Positions 14,316 to 54,820 of a stretch of 64,000 nucleotides of DNA are shown here, one piece after another (the stretch's first letter is position 1; every line of letters starts with the position of its first letter). The stretch comes from a virus: the IMG/VR virus record IMGVR_UViG_3300045988_121005. One strand, 5' to 3'. The position numbers and the translations under genes were made by a program. The notes beneath the pieces were generated by a model that saw only the letters and a list, made by a program, of their open reading frames with translations, searched no databases and was not told where the DNA came from.

Positions 14316-14624
14316 TTATTCTACTTTTTTGATTTCACTCAAATCGCCTTCATACACCAAATAAGATCCTCTTCCAGGTCTTCCTTCTTTATTAACTTCC
14401 TGGATTGTAAATATAACTGTTCCAGTACTCATGATTTGAACGCTCTTGAAGAAACCAACAAGAGGTACTTTCGAACGTTTGTAAAGAACGTTCACTTTAT
14501 CTCCCTTCTTGAATCCATAAACAGAATCGAAATATTCCTTTTTAATTCTTTCAATATTACTTCTATGTTTGTTCATTGCATCAAGCTCTGTGTCTAACAG
14601 TTGAATCATTTGTTCTTTTGTCAT
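14316..14624 (-). CDS. Hypothetical protein (102 aa).
   Basis: ORF; coupled to its neighbours. Confidence 0.5.
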   Translation of the reverse strand: MTKEQMIQLLDTELDAMNKHRSNIERIKKEYFDSVYGFKKGDKVNVLYKRSKVPLVGFFKSVQIMSTGTVIFTIQEVNKEGRPGRGSYLVYEGDLSEIKKVE

Positions 14625-15178
14625 TTCTTTTCCTCCTTATTTAATGGTATTAATCCTTTCCCGTGCTTATCATACCACAGCATAGCTATACAATTCCATG
14701 CACATTGTGCAAGATGAAAAGCTCCTGTATCTGAGTCTATTCTTTCCCCTTTCATGTATTCCATTAGGTGTCTGGCAGCCGCAGCACGATACCGTTCAAA
14801 CCCATTGTCAAGGTTCTGCCATTTATTGGGTCCGTACTTCTTGGCGCCAGCATGATAGACTCTTACAATGTCTTCAATCTCCTCCATTGGAAGCAAGTCC
14901 CATCGTAGTTTGTCGTCTATGATGTCATTCTTCACCGATTTATTTTCTACGGGGTCTTTGGAAAGAATAATATCCATAATATCCGTTTCTATGACGAACG
15001 TCTCCCCATTACAACAAACCTCAGCATATTTATCATTTACTTCTATGTCTGATACTGCCTCCGCTATAGCTCCTTTGGCTATTTTAAATTCTGCACTGAT
15101 TATATCATCTTTCAATATGCGAAAAATAGATCCTTTTGGATAAAGGATATTTTTAGTGTTATCATCCATCTTTTCCAT
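14621..15178 (-). CDS. Hypothetical protein; possibly nucleotide-binding.
   Basis: Conserved-looking C-terminal block VYHAGAKKYGPNKWQN...DSDTGAFHLAQCAWN. No confident family assignment. Confidence 0.55.
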   Translation of the reverse strand: MEKMDDNTKNILYPKGSIFRILKDDIISAEFKIAKGAIAEAVSDIEVNDKYAEVCCNGETFVIETDIMDIILSKDPVENKSVKNDIIDDKLRWDLLPMEEIEDIVRVYHAGAKKYGPNKWQNLDNGFERYRAAAARHLMEYMKGERIDSDTGAFHLAQCAWNCIAMLWYDKHGKGLIPLNKEEKK

Positions 15179-16351: not shown

Positions 16352-16714
16352 TTATGCGCCTATGGCTGCCTCTAAATTTCCTATAATATCAGTTTCTATC
16401 TCATCGATTTTATCATCAATGGTTGAAACCGCATTCTCTAAATCCCCTACAATACTTTCCATATCATCAACAACCGCCTCCATATTAGCTACAGCCTCAT
16501 CTGATTGATAATATCTTTCTGTATCTTGTAACGACTCCGGCATATTGTCTCTTGATTCTGTCTCTTCATCTAAAATCATATCAACATCATCCTTGGCTGA
16601 ATCCAAATTATGCCTAACCTCTGACAGCTTTGATTTGATAAACTCAAGATCTGTTTTATGCTTTTCCAAATTGGAAATAATATCCTCTATTTTCTTACGT
16701 CTTTTGCTGTTCAT
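16352..16714 (-). CDS. Hypothetical acidic coiled-coil protein.
   Basis: ORF. Confidence 0.5.
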   Translation of the reverse strand: MNSKRRKKIEDIISNLEKHKTDLEFIKSKLSEVRHNLDSAKDDVDMILDEETESRDNMPESLQDTERYYQSDEAVANMEAVVDDMESIVGDLENAVSTIDDKIDEIETDIIGNLEAAIGA

Positions 16715-18132
16715 GCTTTTATCCTATTATAATATTCGATAATCTTTTCTTTCCTATCTCCCGGTTTTACCGCCATATTCTCAGCCAGGAACCTAAAATA
16801 TGAAACCGGTATGTCTTTAAATCTAATTCCTTCATATTTTCCAAACCACATTATTATACTGTCAAGATCGTCTTCTCTCCTACCATCTCCATTCACAGAT
16901 TTAAGCGAGGCTGCCCTACGAAGGATCTCGTCTTTGGTAATAATATCCCCCATCCTTATATTGGACAGAAGCTGATTGCCGGCAAACATACACCAACCCT
17001 TAGAAGGGAATTGCTCGATTGTCAGGTCTTCTATCCGACCGAAACGCCTCATGTTGTCGCAGCAGTCAACAATCAGCGCCTCTTTCTTATCAGGATGAAT
17101 ACGAACGCACCTGCCGAGCACCTGGTAATATGTTGAATATGAGAATGTTGGTCTTCCAAACATCACACAATCAAGTTCGGGAAAATCAAATCCGGTAGCA
17201 AGCGTTGAATAATTAAACACGACCTTTAACTTACCTTCTTTGAAATCGGATATAATTTGCTCTCTTTTCTTTTTGGTTGTTAGCGATGTTACGACACCTG
17301 TTATGGCTCCCATCCTGGCATTCATAAACTCGGATATCCTATTACATGATTCTATAGAATCCATGCATACTAAAATGGCCTTACGCTCGTTCATAAGCTG
17401 AAGAAGACGCTTATAGATAGAGTTGTTTAAGCCGTTTCGTACAATACTTTCTTTAATAGATTCGTTGGTGTATTCGGCTCCGGTACTGTTTAACATCAGA
17501 GCCGATTCATCAAAAGACCATCGTTCGTACTTAAGTGGACACCAAAACCCTTGAGAAGTTAGTTCTTGTATTTGAGTCACATGAACTATTTTCTTGAAGA
17601 AGTTATGTTCGTCTTTCGTCAGCATATTGAGCTTGCTATAGTTCCCTTCCAGCATGGAGCTGTAGGTCCGGAGGCGGCAGGGAGTGGCGGTGAAGCCCAG
17701 CACCTTCGCCTCTGGAAACCCGTTCATAAACTCCATAAATTCAGAACCTTCCTCCGGGGAATACCCCGAGTGGCATTCGTCCACCAATAAGGTGTCTATC
17801 CCTATATCTTTCAACCTTGCTACGTCTTTCTTTATGCTTTTAAGTGTAGCATAAGTCATAGCCGACAGTTCCTTTATACCACATGAAGCAGAATATATAG
17901 TAGGTTTAGAACCGAATGATACGGCCTTTGCATAATTCTGCTCCAGAATCTCTTTTGAGGGCTGTAATACTAATGTCGGTCTATTTATTTCATGTGCTAT
18001 CTTGGATATCAGAAGGCTCTTTCCACATCCGCATGGAGCTACGATTATGCCAGGCTTCTTAGATCTTCCTGTAAGAAACTTAAGCCCGGCATCTACTGCC
18101 TCTTTTTGGTAAGGTCTAAGTTCAAAGCCCAT
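16711..18132 (-). CDS. SF2 DNA helicase of the UvsW/Rad25 type with a C-terminal UvsW.1-like (DUF3820-like) extension.
   Basis: LRPYQ, Walker A APCGCGKS, DEAH-type VDECH. C-terminal block MWFGKYEGIRFKDIPVSYFRFL. Confidence 0.75.
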   Translation of the reverse strand: MGFELRPYQKEAVDAGLKFLTGRSKKPGIIVAPCGCGKSLLISKIAHEINRPTLVLQPSKEILEQNYAKAVSFGSKPTIYSASCGIKELSAMTYATLKSIKKDVARLKDIGIDTLLVDECHSGYSPEEGSEFMEFMNGFPEAKVLGFTATPCRLRTYSSMLEGNYSKLNMLTKDEHNFFKKIVHVTQIQELTSQGFWCPLKYERWSFDESALMLNSTGAEYTNESIKESIVRNGLNNSIYKRLLQLMNERKAILVCMDSIESCNRISEFMNARMGAITGVVTSLTTKKKREQIISDFKEGKLKVVFNYSTLATGFDFPELDCVMFGRPTFSYSTYYQVLGRCVRIHPDKKEALIVDCCDNMRRFGRIEDLTIEQFPSKGWCMFAGNQLLSNIRMGDIITKDEILRRAASLKSVNGDGRREDDLDSIIMWFGKYEGIRFKDIPVSYFRFLAENMAVKPGDRKEKIIEYYNRIKA

Positions 18133-46861: not shown

Positions 46862-47029
46862 CTATTGAATTTTGTAGAATAAACTCACATTATGCCGTTT
46901 TAAAGCACTGTAAGTCTTAATTTTGTTGGAAAACCATACATAATGCTGTTTTAAAACGCTGATCTGTTGAATTTTGTTGGAAGGAAGTTGAATTTTGTTG
47001 GAAGGAAGTTGAATTTTGTTGGAAGGAAG
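46862..47029. repeat. Direct repeats: 3 perfect tandem copies of the 21-bp unit TTGAATTTTGTTGGAAGGAAG, plus degenerate upstream copies. Followed by a C-rich tract (47030-47060).
   Basis: Seen directly in the sequence. Lies in an ORF-free region of about 1 kb. Confidence 0.8.
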
Positions 47030-47721
47030 TGCCCTCCCTCCCCCCCTCTCCAACCCCGGCTAATCCTCCGACTTTCTGCATAGAACCTGCGCTCTCGGCC
47101 TCACTACAGGCATACGGAGAGCGCTACAAGCTTATACTATGGCATGGGATATGGGGTGTTTAGAGATAATATCATTCCATAGAGAGAATAGAGAGCCTTC
47201 AGCCCACGCCCTACCGTCTGCTCCTCCTATCAAGATAGATATTCAAACCTATAATCAAAGCCAAAAACAAAAAGCAAAAGACCATTACAACATTATACTG
47301 ATCCGCTCCGTACTCCAACATAGAACGAATACCAACCGACAGAAAATAAAGATCAGCGACTAATAAAAACCACCACATAAAACAAAAAATTTACAATAAG
47401 TATGTCCGAAAATACGGGTATTATAAAACATAACTAATTGATAATCAGACATACCTTATTTTTAAGAAAAATACAATAAGCCTAATTTTCAATCCATAGA
47501 GACGAAAAAGGCGGCATCCGGCACCATATTTTGGGTCAGAAAACCGCCTACAGTTTCGTTTTAGACCAATTTTAACGACAATATATAGACAAAATACCGG
47601 CATTATATCCAAACAGCCTTATTTTTGTTTCGATTTGAACCAATATACGCATTCCTACCTTGTTTGTCGTCGTGTTCACTCTCAGAATATCTTACCCTTA
47701 AATAGAAAGAGTAGGATACGA

Positions 47722-49773: not shown

Positions 49774-49956
49774 CATCACATAAACATCTTTCATATCCCT
49801 CATCACATAAACATCTTTCATATCCCTCATCACATAAACATCTTTCATATCCCTCATCACATAAACATCTTTCTCATATCCCTCATCACATAAACATCTT
49901 TCTCATATCTCTCCCATCACATAAACATCTTTCATATCCCTCATCACATAAAAGTA
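49774..49956. repeat. Tandem direct repeat of about 27 bp (CATCACATAAACATCTTTCATATCCCT), roughly 6.5 copies. Iteron-like.
   Basis: Seen directly. Units are near-identical; some carry a 1-nt insertion. Confidence 0.85.
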
Positions 49957-50001
49957 TGGGGAACCTATCCAAAGTTCCCCATACTTATTTTACGACGGTA
50001 A

Positions 50002-50394
50002 TTATTTACTTTCCCATATTAGTTTATCTTCGGCTATTCCGATCTTTACTTCCTCGCACTTTCTTCCTATCCATCCATTGAGATACGAGAATGGTTCTGA
50101 GTTTTTTACTTCTTCTCCTAAGAAATTAAAAGCTTCAGTAGAAACATGGGATGCTTCATGGCGAACTGTTTCAAAATCAATTATTTTCTTATTAATAAAC
50201 CATATCAAAAATCCCGTATTAGGATTTAATTTACACCCTCCGTATGGAACGGATACAGTTACAGCCTTGCTATTATCTACGTAACTAAAATCGTTATTGA
50301 AACATTCTACCATGCCAGATACGTCTTTTCCTACGTATATCCACAGATTAAAAGGATAGACTTCCGGATAGAACTGATATAATTCACGCTTCAT
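50002..50394 (-). CDS. Small protein with an HExxH motif; putative zinc metallopeptidase-like.
   Basis: VRHEASHV. Last gene of a four-gene coupled operon. Confidence 0.4.
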   Translation of the reverse strand: MKRELYQFYPEVYPFNLWIYVGKDVSGMVECFNNDFSYVDNSKAVTVSVPYGGCKLNPNTGFLIWFINKKIIDFETVRHEASHVSTEAFNFLGEEVKNSEPFSYLNGWIGRKCEEVKIGIAEDKLIWESK

Positions 50395-51347
50395 TTCGAT
50401 AAAAGTTTTTTACTTTCAAGGAAGTCCTTAAACTGATCACTTGATACGTCTATAACGAATCCAGCAGCACCAGCATGTCCTCCACCACCGAATCTTTTAC
50501 TTACCTCACAGCAATCTACGCTGTCTTCTACGCATTCATAAAGAGAGAACCGTACTTTACCACCTGGCATGATACAAAATGGCATAAGGGCTTTAATTTT
50601 TCTACCGTCTAACCAGTCTCGTGTAAGAGAATCAAATACCTTAGAACTAAATTCGGTGGTATTCATCGCCACGACCTTCACCTCATCAACGTACGCTTCG
50701 AACGAATACGCACTTACCTCTTGTTCGTTTTTACCAGCCATGTAGTTAATTATAGCACGTCCTTCTTTAGCGAGATCATAAAAAATAAGATCAATTTCAT
50801 TGTCCTTCATATCTTCTTTAAAGTGATCATACAAATACGACAATGCTATTAATACATTGAGTCTTATTTTTGATCTCAAGGCATACTGGATAGCTACTAC
50901 CGTATCCCAGCCTAAACCGGATTCTTTATTCCACACATCGTAGTCTGACAGACACCGGACGATCGCCGGCACCTTCCCCATCAGCAGGTCCGAAGCCAGA
51001 GCGCACGCACCGACGCCGACTCTCCTAAGCCCTGGAACAGTGAATCCCCATGTCTTACTATCTTCGATAATTCCCTTATGATGATCTATCCACATCAGGC
51101 TCTTTCCTTCATCAAGCCACTTTTTGAAAACCGTTTTAGAATCGGCACCGAAAGACACATCAAGAACGTAAACAACATCTAAGTCACTCACCTTGCTGGT
51201 AACTTTCTTAACATCATCTTCATACGAATACGGGATATAAATAACATCCTTGTTTTTACTGTTTTCGTACATGGTTGCGATGGCTGCCGACACAACGCCA
51301 TCTAAATCTGATTTATGATAAACTATCGCCGTTTTTTTTACTTTCAT
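50391..51347 (-). CDS. DHH-DHHA1 family phosphoesterase (NrnA/RecJ-like).
   Basis: N-terminal HKSDLDGVVSA (DHH) and C-terminal GGGGHAGAAGF (DHHA1 GGGH). Confidence 0.65.
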   Translation of the reverse strand: MKVKKTAIVYHKSDLDGVVSAAIATMYENSKNKDVIYIPYSYEDDVKKVTSKVSDLDVVYVLDVSFGADSKTVFKKWLDEGKSLMWIDHHKGIIEDSKTWGFTVPGLRRVGVGACALASDLLMGKVPAIVRCLSDYDVWNKESGLGWDTVVAIQYALRSKIRLNVLIALSYLYDHFKEDMKDNEIDLIFYDLAKEGRAIINYMAGKNEQEVSAYSFEAYVDEVKVVAMNTTEFSSKVFDSLTRDWLDGRKIKALMPFCIMPGGKVRFSLYECVEDSVDCCEVSKRFGGGGHAGAAGFVIDVSSDQFKDFLESKKLLSK

Positions 51348-52188
51348 AATATAAGCTTGTGAATGTAATATTATTGTCTCCTTTATCTATTCTTATAATA
51401 TCGCTGTATCCTCTATAATCCTGATCTTTTTTAATACGAACCTTCAAAGTAGCTAAAGGAGGTTTACAGACAGGAGGAGTGTCAAACTCATCACTATAAA
51501 TATCTTGCAATTCAATTTTTATATTAAGATCAACTCCATATGGATTTTCAAGGATATATATATGATCGTTGTTTAGAATAACTATTCCTTCACTTGTATG
51601 TTCTTTGGACAATACATAATTTAAATCAAGATCTTTACCAACAAACTGAATAACATCCATATAGTCAATGCCGGCATTCTCAGCACATACCTTATCCGAA
51701 TCAGAGAACTGCCCTGGCAGACCACTGGCGCTTCCTACCATCAGCGTCATTGTCTCAATATCTTTATATGTTATACCATCCATCATCAACCTACAAGCAC
51801 CAAGTGCCTTATATACCATACCGGGATTAGGCTTCATCATCGGATCATATTCATCAATTGAAAAACACTCATAATGACCATACACTACTCCTCTTATACC
51901 TCTTTTCACTGCAAGATCATGAACGCATCTAAGGACATAATTTATCTTCGCATCAATATCTTCATCGGAAACAAACCCGACACCCACATCACATTGGTTG
52001 CTTATTATACCAAAGTATTTAACGCCATTTTGCTCCATAAGATCAAGTGCCCTATTCACGACATCTTGCTTAATCTTCATATCAGTAAGATCTTTTGCAT
52101 AAAGACCTCCAGATATGGTTTCAACCAACGTCCCGTCAAAATCAAATAGTAGTATTCTTTTGTTTTTAATATACAAATCTTTCATCAT
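51313..52188 (-). CDS. HAD-superfamily phosphatase (PNKP/HisB-like) with an extra C-terminal domain.
   Basis: Motif I LFDFDGTL, motif II IISNQ, motif III KPNPGM. Confidence 0.65.
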   Translation of the reverse strand: MMKDLYIKNKRILLFDFDGTLVETISGGLYAKDLTDMKIKQDVVNRALDLMEQNGVKYFGIISNQCDVGVGFVSDEDIDAKINYVLRCVHDLAVKRGIRGVVYGHYECFSIDEYDPMMKPNPGMVYKALGACRLMMDGITYKDIETMTLMVGSASGLPGQFSDSDKVCAENAGIDYMDVIQFVGKDLDLNYVLSKEHTSEGIVILNNDHIYILENPYGVDLNIKIELQDIYSDEFDTPPVCKPPLATLKVRIKKDQDYRGYSDIIRIDKGDNNITFTSLYYESKKNGDSLS

Positions 52189-52595
52189 TTTTCACTCCTA
52201 CTCTTTTTTATTACCCTAAACTGAAGACGGAATAGATTACTGTCTTCTTTTATAATATCATACACAGCATAAGAATTTTCTCCTATATCCCATCCAAGAT
52301 AATCGAGCAGGTCTTTTAAGTAAATCCTCTTGTATTTTACACCAAGGTTATTTACCTTAAACGATCTCTCGTCTTCAACATCAGAAGCAGCCAGATAAAA
52401 GACCGTATTTTCAACTCCTTCAAATATCTTCCCTTCTTCTAAGCCGATAACAACCGCATCCGTTACCCCCATCCAATTCAAATTATCGACAGAGATAGTC
52501 ATTATCTTACTTTTGCTGATTGACAACTTCCGGATCTTGCTTTCTTTAGTTTTAGATCCTAAAAAATCCGTACTGTTAAAAAAATCTACTTTCAT
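52185..52595 (-). CDS. Hypothetical protein (136 aa), first gene of the HAD/DHH operon.
   Basis: ORF; 4-nt overlap. Confidence 0.5.
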   Translation of the reverse strand: MKVDFFNSTDFLGSKTKESKIRKLSISKSKIMTISVDNLNWMGVTDAVVIGLEEGKIFEGVENTVFYLAASDVEDERSFKVNNLGVKYKRIYLKDLLDYLGWDIGENSYAVYDIIKEDSNLFRLQFRVIKKSRSEK

Positions 52596-52740
52596 GGTTA
52601 TAATATTTTATATTTATGTTGCAAACATACATAATAAATAATCATCAAAGAAATAAATAGGATTAAAATATGATAAAAAACACATAGCACTACGTATTTA
52701 ATAAAAATAAATCAATGACACAAGATAATAAAAATAATCA

Positions 52741-52779: not shown

Positions 52780-53436
52780 ATGGCAGAATCGAAAATAGTT
52801 TTTGTAACCTTCAATCCGGGATCAGGTGACGGTGCTCAGGCAGTCACCGTATCAGGTGAAAAATACGAAGGTCGTGTACAGCGCACGCAACAAGTAGAAT
52901 TTGGTGCCGAATCAGGCGGTGTTAAGAAAACTGCTACCATCAACCAAGCTGCGGCAGCTGAGTTTGTAAAAATAGATCCTACTGCATCCGTAGGGAAAGG
53001 AGGTGGTACTGTAACGATCAACGGTACAAGTAACTCAACTAAATTAACGTTCTCTCTAACTCCGGACGAGACTCATCCTCTGACGTTGGAAATACCTGCC
53101 AGTTATCAGGCGGCAGGCAAGGCTACCAGCAACGGCGCTGTTATTGCCGACGACCCTGGTGCAACAGGGGGCTTTGCTTTCAGTATCGTATTCTCCGGTA
53201 TTGCAGCGAACACTAATATAAACGATCTGGTAAATACTCTTAAGGTTACGGCCGCTGGTGGTCAGACAGCTAATACGGTTATTACCCAGACAGCAGGTGA
53301 TCCGTTCTTGGAAATAGACAAGGAGGTAATCAACTTGGATGCAAACGGTACTCCTCAGACTATCAATGTTAATGCTAACATCAGGTGGACTATCACACAA
53401 GCTGTTTCTAAGTTGGTAAGGACAGTAATGAAGTGA
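52780..53436 (+). CDS. Gly/Thr/Ala-rich protein (218 aa); possibly virion-associated.
   Basis: Isolated plus-strand ORF with a strong downstream terminator. Confidence 0.6.
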   Translation: MAESKIVFVTFNPGSGDGAQAVTVSGEKYEGRVQRTQQVEFGAESGGVKKTATINQAAAAEFVKIDPTASVGKGGGTVTINGTSNSTKLTFSLTPDETHPLTLEIPASYQAAGKATSNGAVIADDPGATGGFAFSIVFSGIAANTNINDLVNTLKVTAAGGQTANTVITQTAGDPFLEIDKEVINLDANGTPQTINVNANIRWTITQAVSKLVRTVMK

Positions 53437-54458: not shown

Positions 54459-54530
54459 GAGGCTTGTGGCGGAATCGAACCGCCCTACGAGGTTTTGCGG
54501 ACCCCTGACTAAACCACTCATCCAACAAGC
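54459..54530 (-). tRNA. tRNA-Cys(GCA): tRNA-Cys (GCA).
   Basis: 72 nt. Acceptor GGCUUGU/ACAAGCC, T-arm GGCGG-UUCGAUU-CCGCC, anticodon loop CCGCAAA. Confidence 0.7.
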
Positions 54531-54533
54531 CAT

Positions 54534-54607
54534 GTAGCCCAACCGGGAGTCGAACCCGGAACTAAAGTTTAGGAAACTTTTGTTATATCCGTTTAACTAC
54601 CAGGCTA
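54534..54607 (-). tRNA. tRNA-Arg(CCT): tRNA-Arg (CCT).
   Basis: T-arm CCGGG-UUCGACU-CCCGG. Anticodon stem AAAGU/ACUUU with loop UUCCUAA. The acceptor stem contains several G-U pairs. Confidence 0.6.
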
Positions 54608-54674
54608 TTTAATGTTTGCTATGTTCACACACCGCAAACACTGAGATAATTAACATTTCCACAAAAACTTATCG

Positions 54675-54745
54675 TTATCCAAGGAGGATTCGAACCTCCG
54701 ATAACAGAACCAAAATCTGTTGTGTTACCACTACACCATTGGACA
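54675..54745 (-). tRNA. tRNA-Gln(TTG): tRNA-Gln (TTG).
   Basis: D-arm GUGU/ACAC, anticodon stem ACAGA/UCUGU with loop UUUUGGU, T-arm GGAGG-UUCGAAU-CCUCC. Confidence 0.75.
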
Positions 54746-54746
54746 G

Positions 54747-54820
54747 TGGTCCCGGAGGGATTTGAACCCACGATCTTGCGGTTATGAGCCGCCTGCTTTC
54801 ACCACTAAGCTACAGGACCT
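54747..54820 (-). tRNA. tRNA-Met(CAT): tRNA-Met (CAT).
   Basis: Acceptor GGUCCUG/CGGGACC, D-arm GCUU/AAGC, anticodon loop CUCAUAA, T-loop UUCAAAU. Confidence 0.75.

Follow-up and report, generated by a model that had tools for sequence, protein, structure and literature searches.

A four-gene phage operon predicted to encode a PNKP/Tpp1-type phosphatase and a DHH-DHHA1 enzyme

The 64,000-nucleotide (nt) stretch of virus DNA in record IMGVR_UViG_3300045988_121005 (hereafter the window, to which strands and coordinates refer) carries on its minus strand an operon of four genes, g1 to g4, at positions 52595-50002 (Table 1). Two of the products belong to known enzyme families: g2 is a phosphatase of the haloacid dehalogenase (HAD) type, which profile searches place nearest the PNKP/Tpp1-type polynucleotide 3'-phosphatases, and g3 is a DHH-DHHA1 protein whose predicted structure resembles the helical-linker DHH enzymes of viruses. 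Neighboring open reading frames (ORFs) overlap by 4 nt (g1/g2, 52185-52188), 35 nt (g2/g3, 51313-51347), and 4 nt (g3/g4, 50391-50394). A preliminary description of this DNA had called the locus a tight operon with overlaps of 4 to 35 nt, and the coordinates in the ORF list match this exactly; the motifs it named are likewise present in the translations, as FDFDGTL, ISNQ, and KPNPG in g2, GGGGH in g3, and HEASH in g4.

The operon is bounded on both sides by candidate regulatory elements. Upstream, a 184-nt A+T-rich intergenic region separates g1 from a divergent plus-strand gene starting at 52780, and contains the element TATGTTTG, which we take to be a Bacteroides-type -7 promoter element on the basis of its consensus; a TTTG sits 16 nt further upstream of it. 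A scan for sigma-70 promoters returned sites at no more than chance level. Downstream of g4, the predicted RNA fold of the intrinsic terminator has a free energy of -27.3 kcal/mol (z score -5.73), and none of 200 shuffled sequences is equally stable. Because of the divergent upstream region with its promoter-like element and the terminator after g4, the four genes appear to form a well-delimited transcription unit.

The sole phage match to the window in GenBank is csAssE-Sib (OR575929.1), a 151-kb phage genome from the human gut that aligns to 98% of the window's length at 93.8% identity. In that genome a replication block accompanies structural genes of the crAss-like type, for ring and muzzle proteins, and by this sequence relationship the operon belongs to a gut crAss-like phage. 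Existing annotation of csAssE-Sib names g2 "polynucleotide kinase 3' phosphatase" and g3 "phosphodiesterase (NrnA)", and leaves g1 and g4 "hypothetical". In both the window and csAssE-Sib, the long minus-strand block that holds the operon also includes an MmcB-like repair gene, four tRNAs, and genes for dUTPase, single-stranded DNA-binding protein (SSB), sliding clamp, RuvC, and thymidylate synthase. Homologs of g4 occur only in phages of Bacteroides and Porphyromonas, and relatives of g3 in the Lak phages of Prevotella, so the likely hosts are Bacteroidota. A literature search returned nothing relevant on csAssE or on DHH proteins in crAss-like phages.

Table 1. Features of the operon, its surroundings, and the counterpart genes discussed in the text (window coordinates unless an accession is given).
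Feature	Coordinates	Strand	Description
g1	52595..52185	-	136 aa; first gene of the operon; from the ORF list
g2	52188..51313	-	291 aa; HAD phosphatase; from the ORF list
g2 N-terminal part (about aa 1-185)	51634..52188	-	HAD-IIIA domain of PNKP/Tpp1-type 3'-phosphatases; PF08645
g2 C-terminal extension (about aa 186-291)	51313..51633	-	Optional module; final 35 nt overlap g3
g3	51347..50391	-	318 aa; predicted DHH-DHHA1 phosphoesterase/exonuclease; from the ORF list
g4	50394..50002	-	130 aa; small HExxH...E protein; from the ORF list
Candidate -7 promoter element TATGTTTG (TAnnTTTG)	52622..52629	-	27 nt upstream of the g1 ATG; read from the sequence
Intrinsic terminator	49946..49986	-	15-bp G+C-rich hairpin (49952-49986) and U-run; begins 16 nt past the g4 stop
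27-nt tandem array	49774-49952		6.4 units; adjoins the operon
21-nt tandem array	46966-47030		3.1 units
Divergent gene	52780-53436	+	218 aa
tRNA cluster	54459-54819	-	Cys-GCA, Arg-CCT, Gln-TTG, Met-CAT; 1.9 kb upstream of the operon
PDDEXK nuclease gene	18990-20009		51-56% identity to sister-clade locus L084 (range for this and the next two rows)
SNF2/DEAD helicase gene	16711-18132		As above
dATP/dGTP diphosphohydrolase gene	14621-15178		As above; PF18909
Ro60-related protein gene	OR575929.1 73091-74725		This and the next four rows lie mostly outside the window
Nucleotidyltransferase gene	OR575929.1 137063-137725
Diversity-generating retroelement	OR575929.1 45751-47816
TnpB gene	OR575929.1 58986-60125
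TnpB gene	OR575929.1 64190-65413

Profile searches bear out the DHH-DHHA1 assignment that had been made for g3 from its motifs. The DHHA1 domain scores 30.8 bits against Pfam (cutoff 25.9), the DHH domain falls slightly under its cutoff (24.3 versus 28.1 bits), and the whole protein matches phrog_4771 ("DHH phosphoesterase") with an E-value of 8e-27. Motifs I-IV of the superfamily (DxD, D, DHH, and D) are found in the N-terminal lobe and GGGH in the DHHA1 lobe of a two-lobe alpha/beta fold. A homolog search recovered 706 relatives, and across 57 aligned homologs His11, Asp14, Asp16, Asp63, Asp88-His89-His90, Asp137, and the Gly288-Gly-Gly-His291 segment are invariant. The ratio of nonsynonymous to synonymous substitution rates (dN/dS) against csAssE-Sib is 0.10, which indicates strong purifying selection. 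As the catalytic positions are all invariant and the gene, single-copy within the window, is under this constraint, the sequence makes it very likely that g3 is an active enzyme.

In the AlphaFold2 model of g3 (mean predicted local distance difference test (pLDDT) score of 93.7), the two lobes are bridged by a 33-residue helix, residues 182-214. Comparison of the model with known folds ranks archaeal RecJ2 (score 17.4), a DHH-type phosphatase of 3'-phosphoadenosine 5'-phosphate (PAP; 17.1), and PF0399 of P. furiosus (17.0) at the top, followed by RecJ-Cdc45 (14.2), TmPDE (14.1), NrnA (12.8), and bacterial RecJ (11.6). By sequence, g3 lies near none of the characterized subfamilies: a single-sequence search of the PDB gives marginal matches, and the family profile reaches TmPDE, the uncharacterized H. 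pylori protein 6mtz, archaeal RecJ2, DhhP, and NrnA at E-values of 1e-8 to 1e-5, mostly over one lobe. In a library of viral structures, the best matches, with Foldseek template modeling (TM) scores of 0.68-0.77, come from jumbo phages (PaBG, PhiEaH1, ME3, RP12, and AR9) and giant viruses and are DHH phosphohydrolases; among them are S5VME0 of Pseudomonas phage PaBG, W8CZM0 of Erwinia phage PhiEaH1, a protein of Acinetobacter phage ME3, the "NrnB" of Bacillus phage AR9, and proteins of Klosneuvirus, Marseillevirus, and Pithovirus. Like g3, these viral proteins (phrog_4771) are standalone two-lobe enzymes of about 280-340 residues; they differ in sharing only 15-20% identity with it and in having no reported pairing with a PNKP-type HAD phosphatase.

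The linker between the lobes separates g3 from the enzyme to which it had been likened. Published work describes pan-viral DHH groups as having an ordered helical linker, and CdnP/NrnA-like enzymes as having disordered ones. g3 has a helical linker of the kind described for the viral groups. NrnA and NrnB resemble g3 in being standalone DHH-DHHA1 proteins with DHH and GGGH motifs, and NrnB shares the alpha-helical linker; the NrnA linker, however, is short and flexible, no NCBIfam NrnA model matches g3, and NrnA in the PDB aligns only at the DHHA1 end (E-value of about 1e-6 with the profile). Thus, of the "NrnA-like DHH" label in the preliminary description, the DHH-DHHA1 part holds, whereas NrnA is over-specific, as it is in the GenBank annotation of the csAssE-Sib ortholog. 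The name NrnB recurs among the relatives, in the AR9 match and in the JGI annotation of a 272-residue homolog (P0101, "NrnB/cAMP/cGMP phosphodiesterase"), although clade A of NrnB has a C-terminal extension of more than 100 residues that g3 lacks. As for RecJ, NCBIfam returns sub-threshold RecJ matches alone (TIGR00644, 16.6 bits against a cutoff of 396.9), and the 318 residues of g3 make up two lobes only, without the oligonucleotide-binding (OB) fold or extra domains of RecJ. Because the helical linker is common to g3, the viral DHH groups, and NrnB, we class g3, on the strength of its model, with the helical-linker DHH enzymes of viruses and not as NrnA or RecJ. The nearest folds are of little help in naming a substrate: archaeal RecJ2 (M. 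jannaschii, 7ykv), which at about 430 residues carries extra elements, and the PAP phosphatase (Methanothermococcus thermolithotrophicus, 8a8k) share 13-16% identity with g3, and substrate preference cannot be transferred at that distance.

The HAD phosphatase call for g2 is confirmed and sharpened by its N-terminal domain, of which residues 12-177 match Pfam PF08645 (PNK3P) at 46.3 bits (cutoff 22), pointing to a polynucleotide 3'-phosphatase of the PNKP/Tpp1 type. The best NCBIfam model is that of DNA 3'-phosphatases (TIGR01664, 53.7 bits, under the equivalog cutoff of 107.65), above the histidinol-phosphatase and generic HAD-IIIA models, and a PDB search gives a weak match to the phosphatase domain of mammalian PNKP, in which the PNKP-like segment GTLxxTxSG after motif I aligns. 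In common with PNKP and Tpp1, g2 has a HAD-IIIA core with DxDGT, S/T-N-Q, and K-P-N motifs. Pfam detects no kinase domain in it; yeast Tpp1 is a standalone 3'-phosphatase without a kinase domain, so that g2 is standalone in the manner of Tpp1, and the phosphatase of T4 Pnkp is a functional analog. In addition to the sub-cutoff TIGR01664 score, two features set g2 apart from PNKP and Tpp1, namely an optional C-terminal domain of about 105 residues, which has no family match in Pfam, PHROG, or NCBIfam, and the replacement of the motif-IV aspartate.

The residues of HAD motifs I-III (Asp16, Asp18, Thr20, Ser63, and Lys119) are invariant in 108 homologs of g2. At the motif-IV position 153 (codon 51730-51732), which from the motif alignment we take to correspond to the Mg2+-binding Asp288 of mouse PNKP (VGDAAGR), the window has serine, and the 108 homologs have Asp (59), Asn (35), Ser (13), or Tyr (1). 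The flanking residues (LMVGxASG; VGSASG in the window) and Asp163 and Asp165 are invariant. The window protein therefore departs from the PNKP/Tpp1 family at this aspartate. Single-nucleotide steps could join Asp, Asn, and Ser (hypothetical codons GAY to AAY to AGY), in which case the metal site may have been lost or retuned one step at a time. With a dN/dS of 0.35 against csAssE-Sib, g2 evolves faster than g3; because of Ser153 and this weaker constraint, the phosphatase step may be impaired or altered.

The composition of the operon was compared across 54 related loci that were fetched through the neighboring MmcB-like gene and have enough downstream DNA. In 53 of them g1, the g2 HAD domain, and g3 occur together, whereas the C-terminal module of g2 is present in 25 and absent from 29, and g4 is present in 23 (about 43%). 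The four combinations of these two elements are similarly frequent (16, 14, 12, and 11 loci), and the complete arrangement of the window is found in 11. Hence g1, the N-terminal domain of g2, and g3 are the fixed parts, and the g2 C-terminal domain and g4 are optional. Where loci without the C-terminal module were examined, the HAD gene stops about 28 nt ahead of g3. Both g1 and g2 have deeply diverged alleles (about 62-66% identity, as against 90-100%) next to a g3 that is 90-97% identical; for g1 the allele classes lie at about 62% and 95-100%. Two loci (L046:4751-5977 and L072) carry between the g2 and g3 orthologs a 408-aa ORF whose N-terminus resembles RuvC and which has an HNH motif (CxxC...HH...CxxC). 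From its sequence it looks like an IscB-type mobile nuclease gene; since this ORF sits between the two genes, their 35-nt overlap is not essential. Three homologs in which HAD and DHH are fused (P0006, P0015, and P0017) are known from one sequence each, and we did not accept them as a natural fusion, as they look like deletion or read-through variants.

The two remaining genes have few relatives. g1 matches no family in Pfam, PHROG, NCBIfam, or PADLOC, and has 12 matches among 1.84 billion cluster representatives, essentially all in the same phage clade, with weak matches to repeats in giant proteins; by these searches it is an ORFan. g4 matches phrog_1365 (unknown function; E-value 4.8e-7) and nothing in Pfam, NCBIfam, or the sequences of the PDB. 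Its HExxH motif, already picked out in the preliminary description, is real and conserved, since His78-Glu79-x-x-His82 and the downstream Glu99 are invariant in six homologs, down to 30% identity, and g4 is plausibly a predicted mini-zincin. The AlphaFold2 model of g4, from a shallow alignment of eight sequences, has a pLDDT of 47. Homologs at about 30% identity lie in Bacteroides LoVEphage, ahead of a helicase, and in Porphyromonas phages, in one of which the gene adjoins the portal gene; one at 43% identity (locus L036) lies directly ahead of a DHH gene. Metagenomes often carry a frameshifted 123-aa version (P0249), which by number of contigs (79) is the commonest g4 form and is altered at its C-terminus after LGEEVKK (3' end of g4, 50002-50100); several internally deleted forms exist as well, so that from sequence g4 appears to be decaying or dispensable across much of the population. 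Neither g1 nor g4 nor the g2 C-terminal domain is similar to the C-terminal extensions of longer DHH homologs or to anything elsewhere in the window.

Downstream of the operon, a gene-poor stretch of about 3 kb separates the two tandem arrays of Table 1. The 27-nt repeats, described earlier as a putative origin-like region, are real, but the origin label is unsupported and we reject it: GC skew has no inflection around 50 kb and gives no hint of an origin, and many public contigs break inside the array. When 53 IMG/VR contigs were retrieved by way of g4, about 17 of them stopped within the 27-nt array, 170-470 nt past g4, and about 7 at the 21-nt array, some 3 kb past g4; these stops are either breaks in the assembly or true genome termini. 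On the other side, the divergent 218-aa gene is labeled "glycosyl hydrolase family 5 / xyloglucanase" in csAssE-Sib, a label that looks unreliable, as the protein has no Pfam or PHROG match. An Rfam search near the operon found the four tRNAs and nothing else. The annotation of csAssE-Sib further lists a Ro60-related protein (encoded beside tRNA genes), a nucleotidyltransferase of the polyA-polymerase/CCA-adding type, a diversity-generating retroelement (template and variable repeats plus reverse transcriptase), and two TnpB genes.

We favor, with about even confidence, the view that the operon is a cassette for nucleic-acid end-processing and turnover tied to replication and nucleotide supply. 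Expression of the cassette would accompany that of the genes for replication and nucleotide metabolism. From oligonucleotides and the ends of DNA or RNA, g2 would strip 3'-phosphates, which stand in the way of exonucleases, polymerases, and ligases. g3 would act as a Mn2+/Mg2+-dependent DHH-DHHA1 exonuclease or phosphodiesterase of the helical-linker type (archaeal RecJ2, NrnB, and viral DHH), breaking single-stranded ends or short oligonucleotides down to mononucleotides. Jointly the two enzymes would dispose of ends that are damaged or blocked and return the fragments to the supply of phage DNA precursors, and g1 and the mini-zincin-like g4 would be clade-specific or accessory partners. In this scheme we infer the substrates of g2 and g3, the direction of the exonuclease, the cooperation of the two enzymes, and any remaining activity of the Ser153 form of g2. 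According to a 2025 paper, bacterial NrnB, a helical-linker DHH-DHHA1 protein, degrades RNA from the 3' end and does not cleave cyclic di-AMP (c-di-AMP); by analogy, a 3'-5' exonuclease of this kind would need prior removal of 3'-phosphates. The end-processing and turnover view is favored because of the family of g2, the selection on g3, the co-occurrence of g1 to g3, and this NrnB biochemistry, together with the neighboring genes and the contexts of DHH genes in other phages and in a bacterium.

In a sister clade, 35 of 36 loci share a gene order in which the PDDEXK nuclease gene is followed by a small ORF, the SNF2/DEAD helicase gene, the DHH gene (with at most one small ORF between helicase and DHH), two small ORFs, and the dATP/dGTP diphosphohydrolase gene; in one of these loci (L084) the helicase and DHH genes share 4 nt, at the stop of the former and the start of the latter. 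The window has counterparts of the nuclease, helicase, and diphosphohydrolase genes (Table 1), but the slot beside its helicase is taken by two ORFs other than DHH, a coiled-coil one of 120 aa and one of 255 aa with unknown function. g3 is 35% identical to the L084 DHH protein. Its gene lies 33 kb from the window's helicase and is thus relocated in comparison with the sister clade. A bacterial relative, from a metagenome-assembled genome of Desulfurivibrionaceae, stands in a row with a RecD2 helicase and an AAA_23/SMC_N (Rad50/SbcC-like) ATPase, in the order RecD2, ATPase, DHH, and in the phage locus L003 an AAA_23/SMC_N ATPase is likewise found just upstream of DHH. The DHH enzyme is thus conserved, encoded once, and found in the company of DNA-handling enzymes, and its conserved placement in the sister-clade replication module suggests a core metabolic function for g3. 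At two loci, L036 and L003, a Tad2-like gene (L036:9244-9783) and an Acb2/Tad1-hairpin gene (L003:10779-10912) lie 2-5 kb downstream of DHH, among DNA methyltransferase genes. Tad2-like and Acb2/Tad1 proteins are sponges for immune nucleotides, which gives a weak hint that the DHH neighborhood can border counter-defense genes.

The same contexts could be taken to mean that g3 is a RecJ-like or GAN/Cdc45-like exonuclease for single-stranded DNA that, as a partner of the phage helicase, removes primers or flaps, resects ends in recombination, or removes deoxyribose phosphate, while g2 as a DNA 3'-phosphatase restores the 3'-OH at breaks, as yeast Tpp1 and PNKP do. We regard this as unlikely in its specific form. 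The helicase and PDDEXK nuclease beside the sister-clade DHH gene and the two ATPase rows would suit it, as would the MmcB-like repair gene, RuvC, SSB, and clamp near the operon, the DNA 3'-phosphatases that define the family of g2, and the interdomain helix of g3, a long helix in this place being a feature of the RecJ core. It is held back by the size and domain content of g3, by the far sub-cutoff RecJ score, and by the distance between g3 and the helicase in the window phage. It overlaps the end-processing and turnover reading, from which it differs mainly in the substrates, i.e., replication and repair intermediates versus bulk fragments.

Several points count against the turnover cassette. 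The HAD-DHH pairing is an innovation of one closely related clade: 40 DHH loci outside it (34-45% identity) have neither a HAD gene nor g1 within 6 kb. Because the pairing is limited to that clade, the functional coupling of the two enzymes is not independently replicated. The serine at motif IV of g2, with its relaxed dN/dS, leaves the phosphatase step possibly impaired, and so weakens any claim that the step is essential. Position in an early/replication gene block reflects timing as much as function, and the fold and motifs of g3 do not separate linear from cyclic substrates. In addition, g1, g2, and g4 are mosaic in their alleles and vary in presence and absence, as counter-defense loci also do, Tad2-like or Acb2/Tad1-like genes lie within 5 kb of DHH at two distant loci, and a viral DHH enzyme degrades immune nucleotides in vitro. 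What supports the cassette for this clade is sequence, model, and analogy.

The last of these points bear on counter-defense, the role first proposed for the operon. Here g3 would destroy the cyclic di- and trinucleotides of cyclic oligonucleotide-based antiphage signaling systems (CBASS), the cyclic oligoadenylates of type III CRISPR systems, or S-adenosyl methionine-AMP (SAM-AMP), with which type III-B CorA systems of Bacteroides signal; g2 would take the terminal (cyclic) phosphates off the linearized products, and g1 and g4 would be further anti-defense accessories. This, too, seems to us unlikely, though its precedents are concrete. DHH-DHHA1 enzymes include cyclic-dinucleotide phosphodiesterases, and phage members have been predicted in the literature to counter CBASS and type III signaling. 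In vitro, a mimivirus DHH enzyme breaks down 3'3'-cyclic GMP-AMP (cGAMP) along with other nucleotide messengers; a DHH enzyme of one phage blocked STING activation. The mimivirus enzyme is dispensable in its host, however. That the best viral folds for g3 come from this same jumbo-phage and giant-virus group, that the operon is a mosaic with optional modules, and that sponge-like genes border DHH in two distant loci all lean toward counter-defense, as does the probable host phylum. In B. fragilis, the CRISPR-associated phosphodiesterase NrN specifically degrades SAM-AMP. By its published description, NrN is like g3 a DHH-family phosphodiesterase from the same host phylum, with a triad at Asp85-His87 against Asp88-His90 of g3. 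NrN is, however, reported to be closest to PggH and GdpP, which are without the helical linker and rank low among the matches of g3, and we found no specific similarity of g3 to signal-degrading DHH subgroups. The helical-linker NrnB enzymes tested do not cut c-di-AMP, and the DHH gene is syntenic in the sister-clade replication module, not patchy. A PADLOC scan of g1 to g4 gave no match, its library being one of defense systems and not of anti-defense proteins. The degradation of CBASS, Pycsar, or type III CRISPR signals, as proposed in the preliminary description, thus finds no specific support in the replication-module placement, the one-clade HAD-DHH pairing, and the NrnB biochemistry; the nucleotide scavenging that it gave as the other option fits the genomic context better.

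The tRNA genes near the operon raise the matter of RNA repair, in which g2 would heal the 3'-phosphate or 2',3'-cyclic phosphate left by host anticodon or tRNA nucleases, g3 would trim, and other phage functions would rebuild the tRNAs. The HAD 3'-phosphatase of T4 Pnkp serves in tRNA healing, the four-tRNA cluster is 1.9 kb away, and csAssE-Sib encodes the Ro60-related protein and the nucleotidyltransferase mentioned above. Those two genes are far from the operon, though, the window ORF expected to be a nucleotidyltransferase has no Pfam match, and neither a polynucleotide 5'-kinase domain nor an RNA ligase is annotated in the 151 kb of csAssE-Sib, with g2 itself lacking the kinase domain. 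We consider tRNA or RNA repair very improbable and the least likely of the explanations.

Both enzyme families were already known, and csAssE-Sib carries essentially the same annotation; new here are a better subfamily placement of g3, the motif-IV polymorphism of g2, the modular composition of the operon, and the finding that the DHH gene has moved in comparison with the sister clade. Few viruses of the human gut are as abundant as crAss-like phages, and the majority of the early genes of these phages are without an assigned role. Better labels for g2 and g3, together with the division into fixed and optional parts, define a small set of proteins for assay. It is a doubtful proposition that the DHH enzyme and the PNKP-type phosphatase together erase the SAM-AMP, cyclic oligoadenylates, or CBASS dinucleotides of Bacteroidota, with the phosphatase clearing the products that end in 3'- or 2',3'-cyclic phosphates; if true, these phages would have an anti-CRISPR resembling NrN in the very phylum to which the SAM-AMP pathway is native. 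Should the DHH enzyme degrade immune nucleotides, it would be a counter-defense factor in the phylum where SAM-AMP signaling was discovered. Should g3 instead be an exonuclease, a conserved RecJ/NrnB-like activity would be documented in replication modules of the Crassvirales type.

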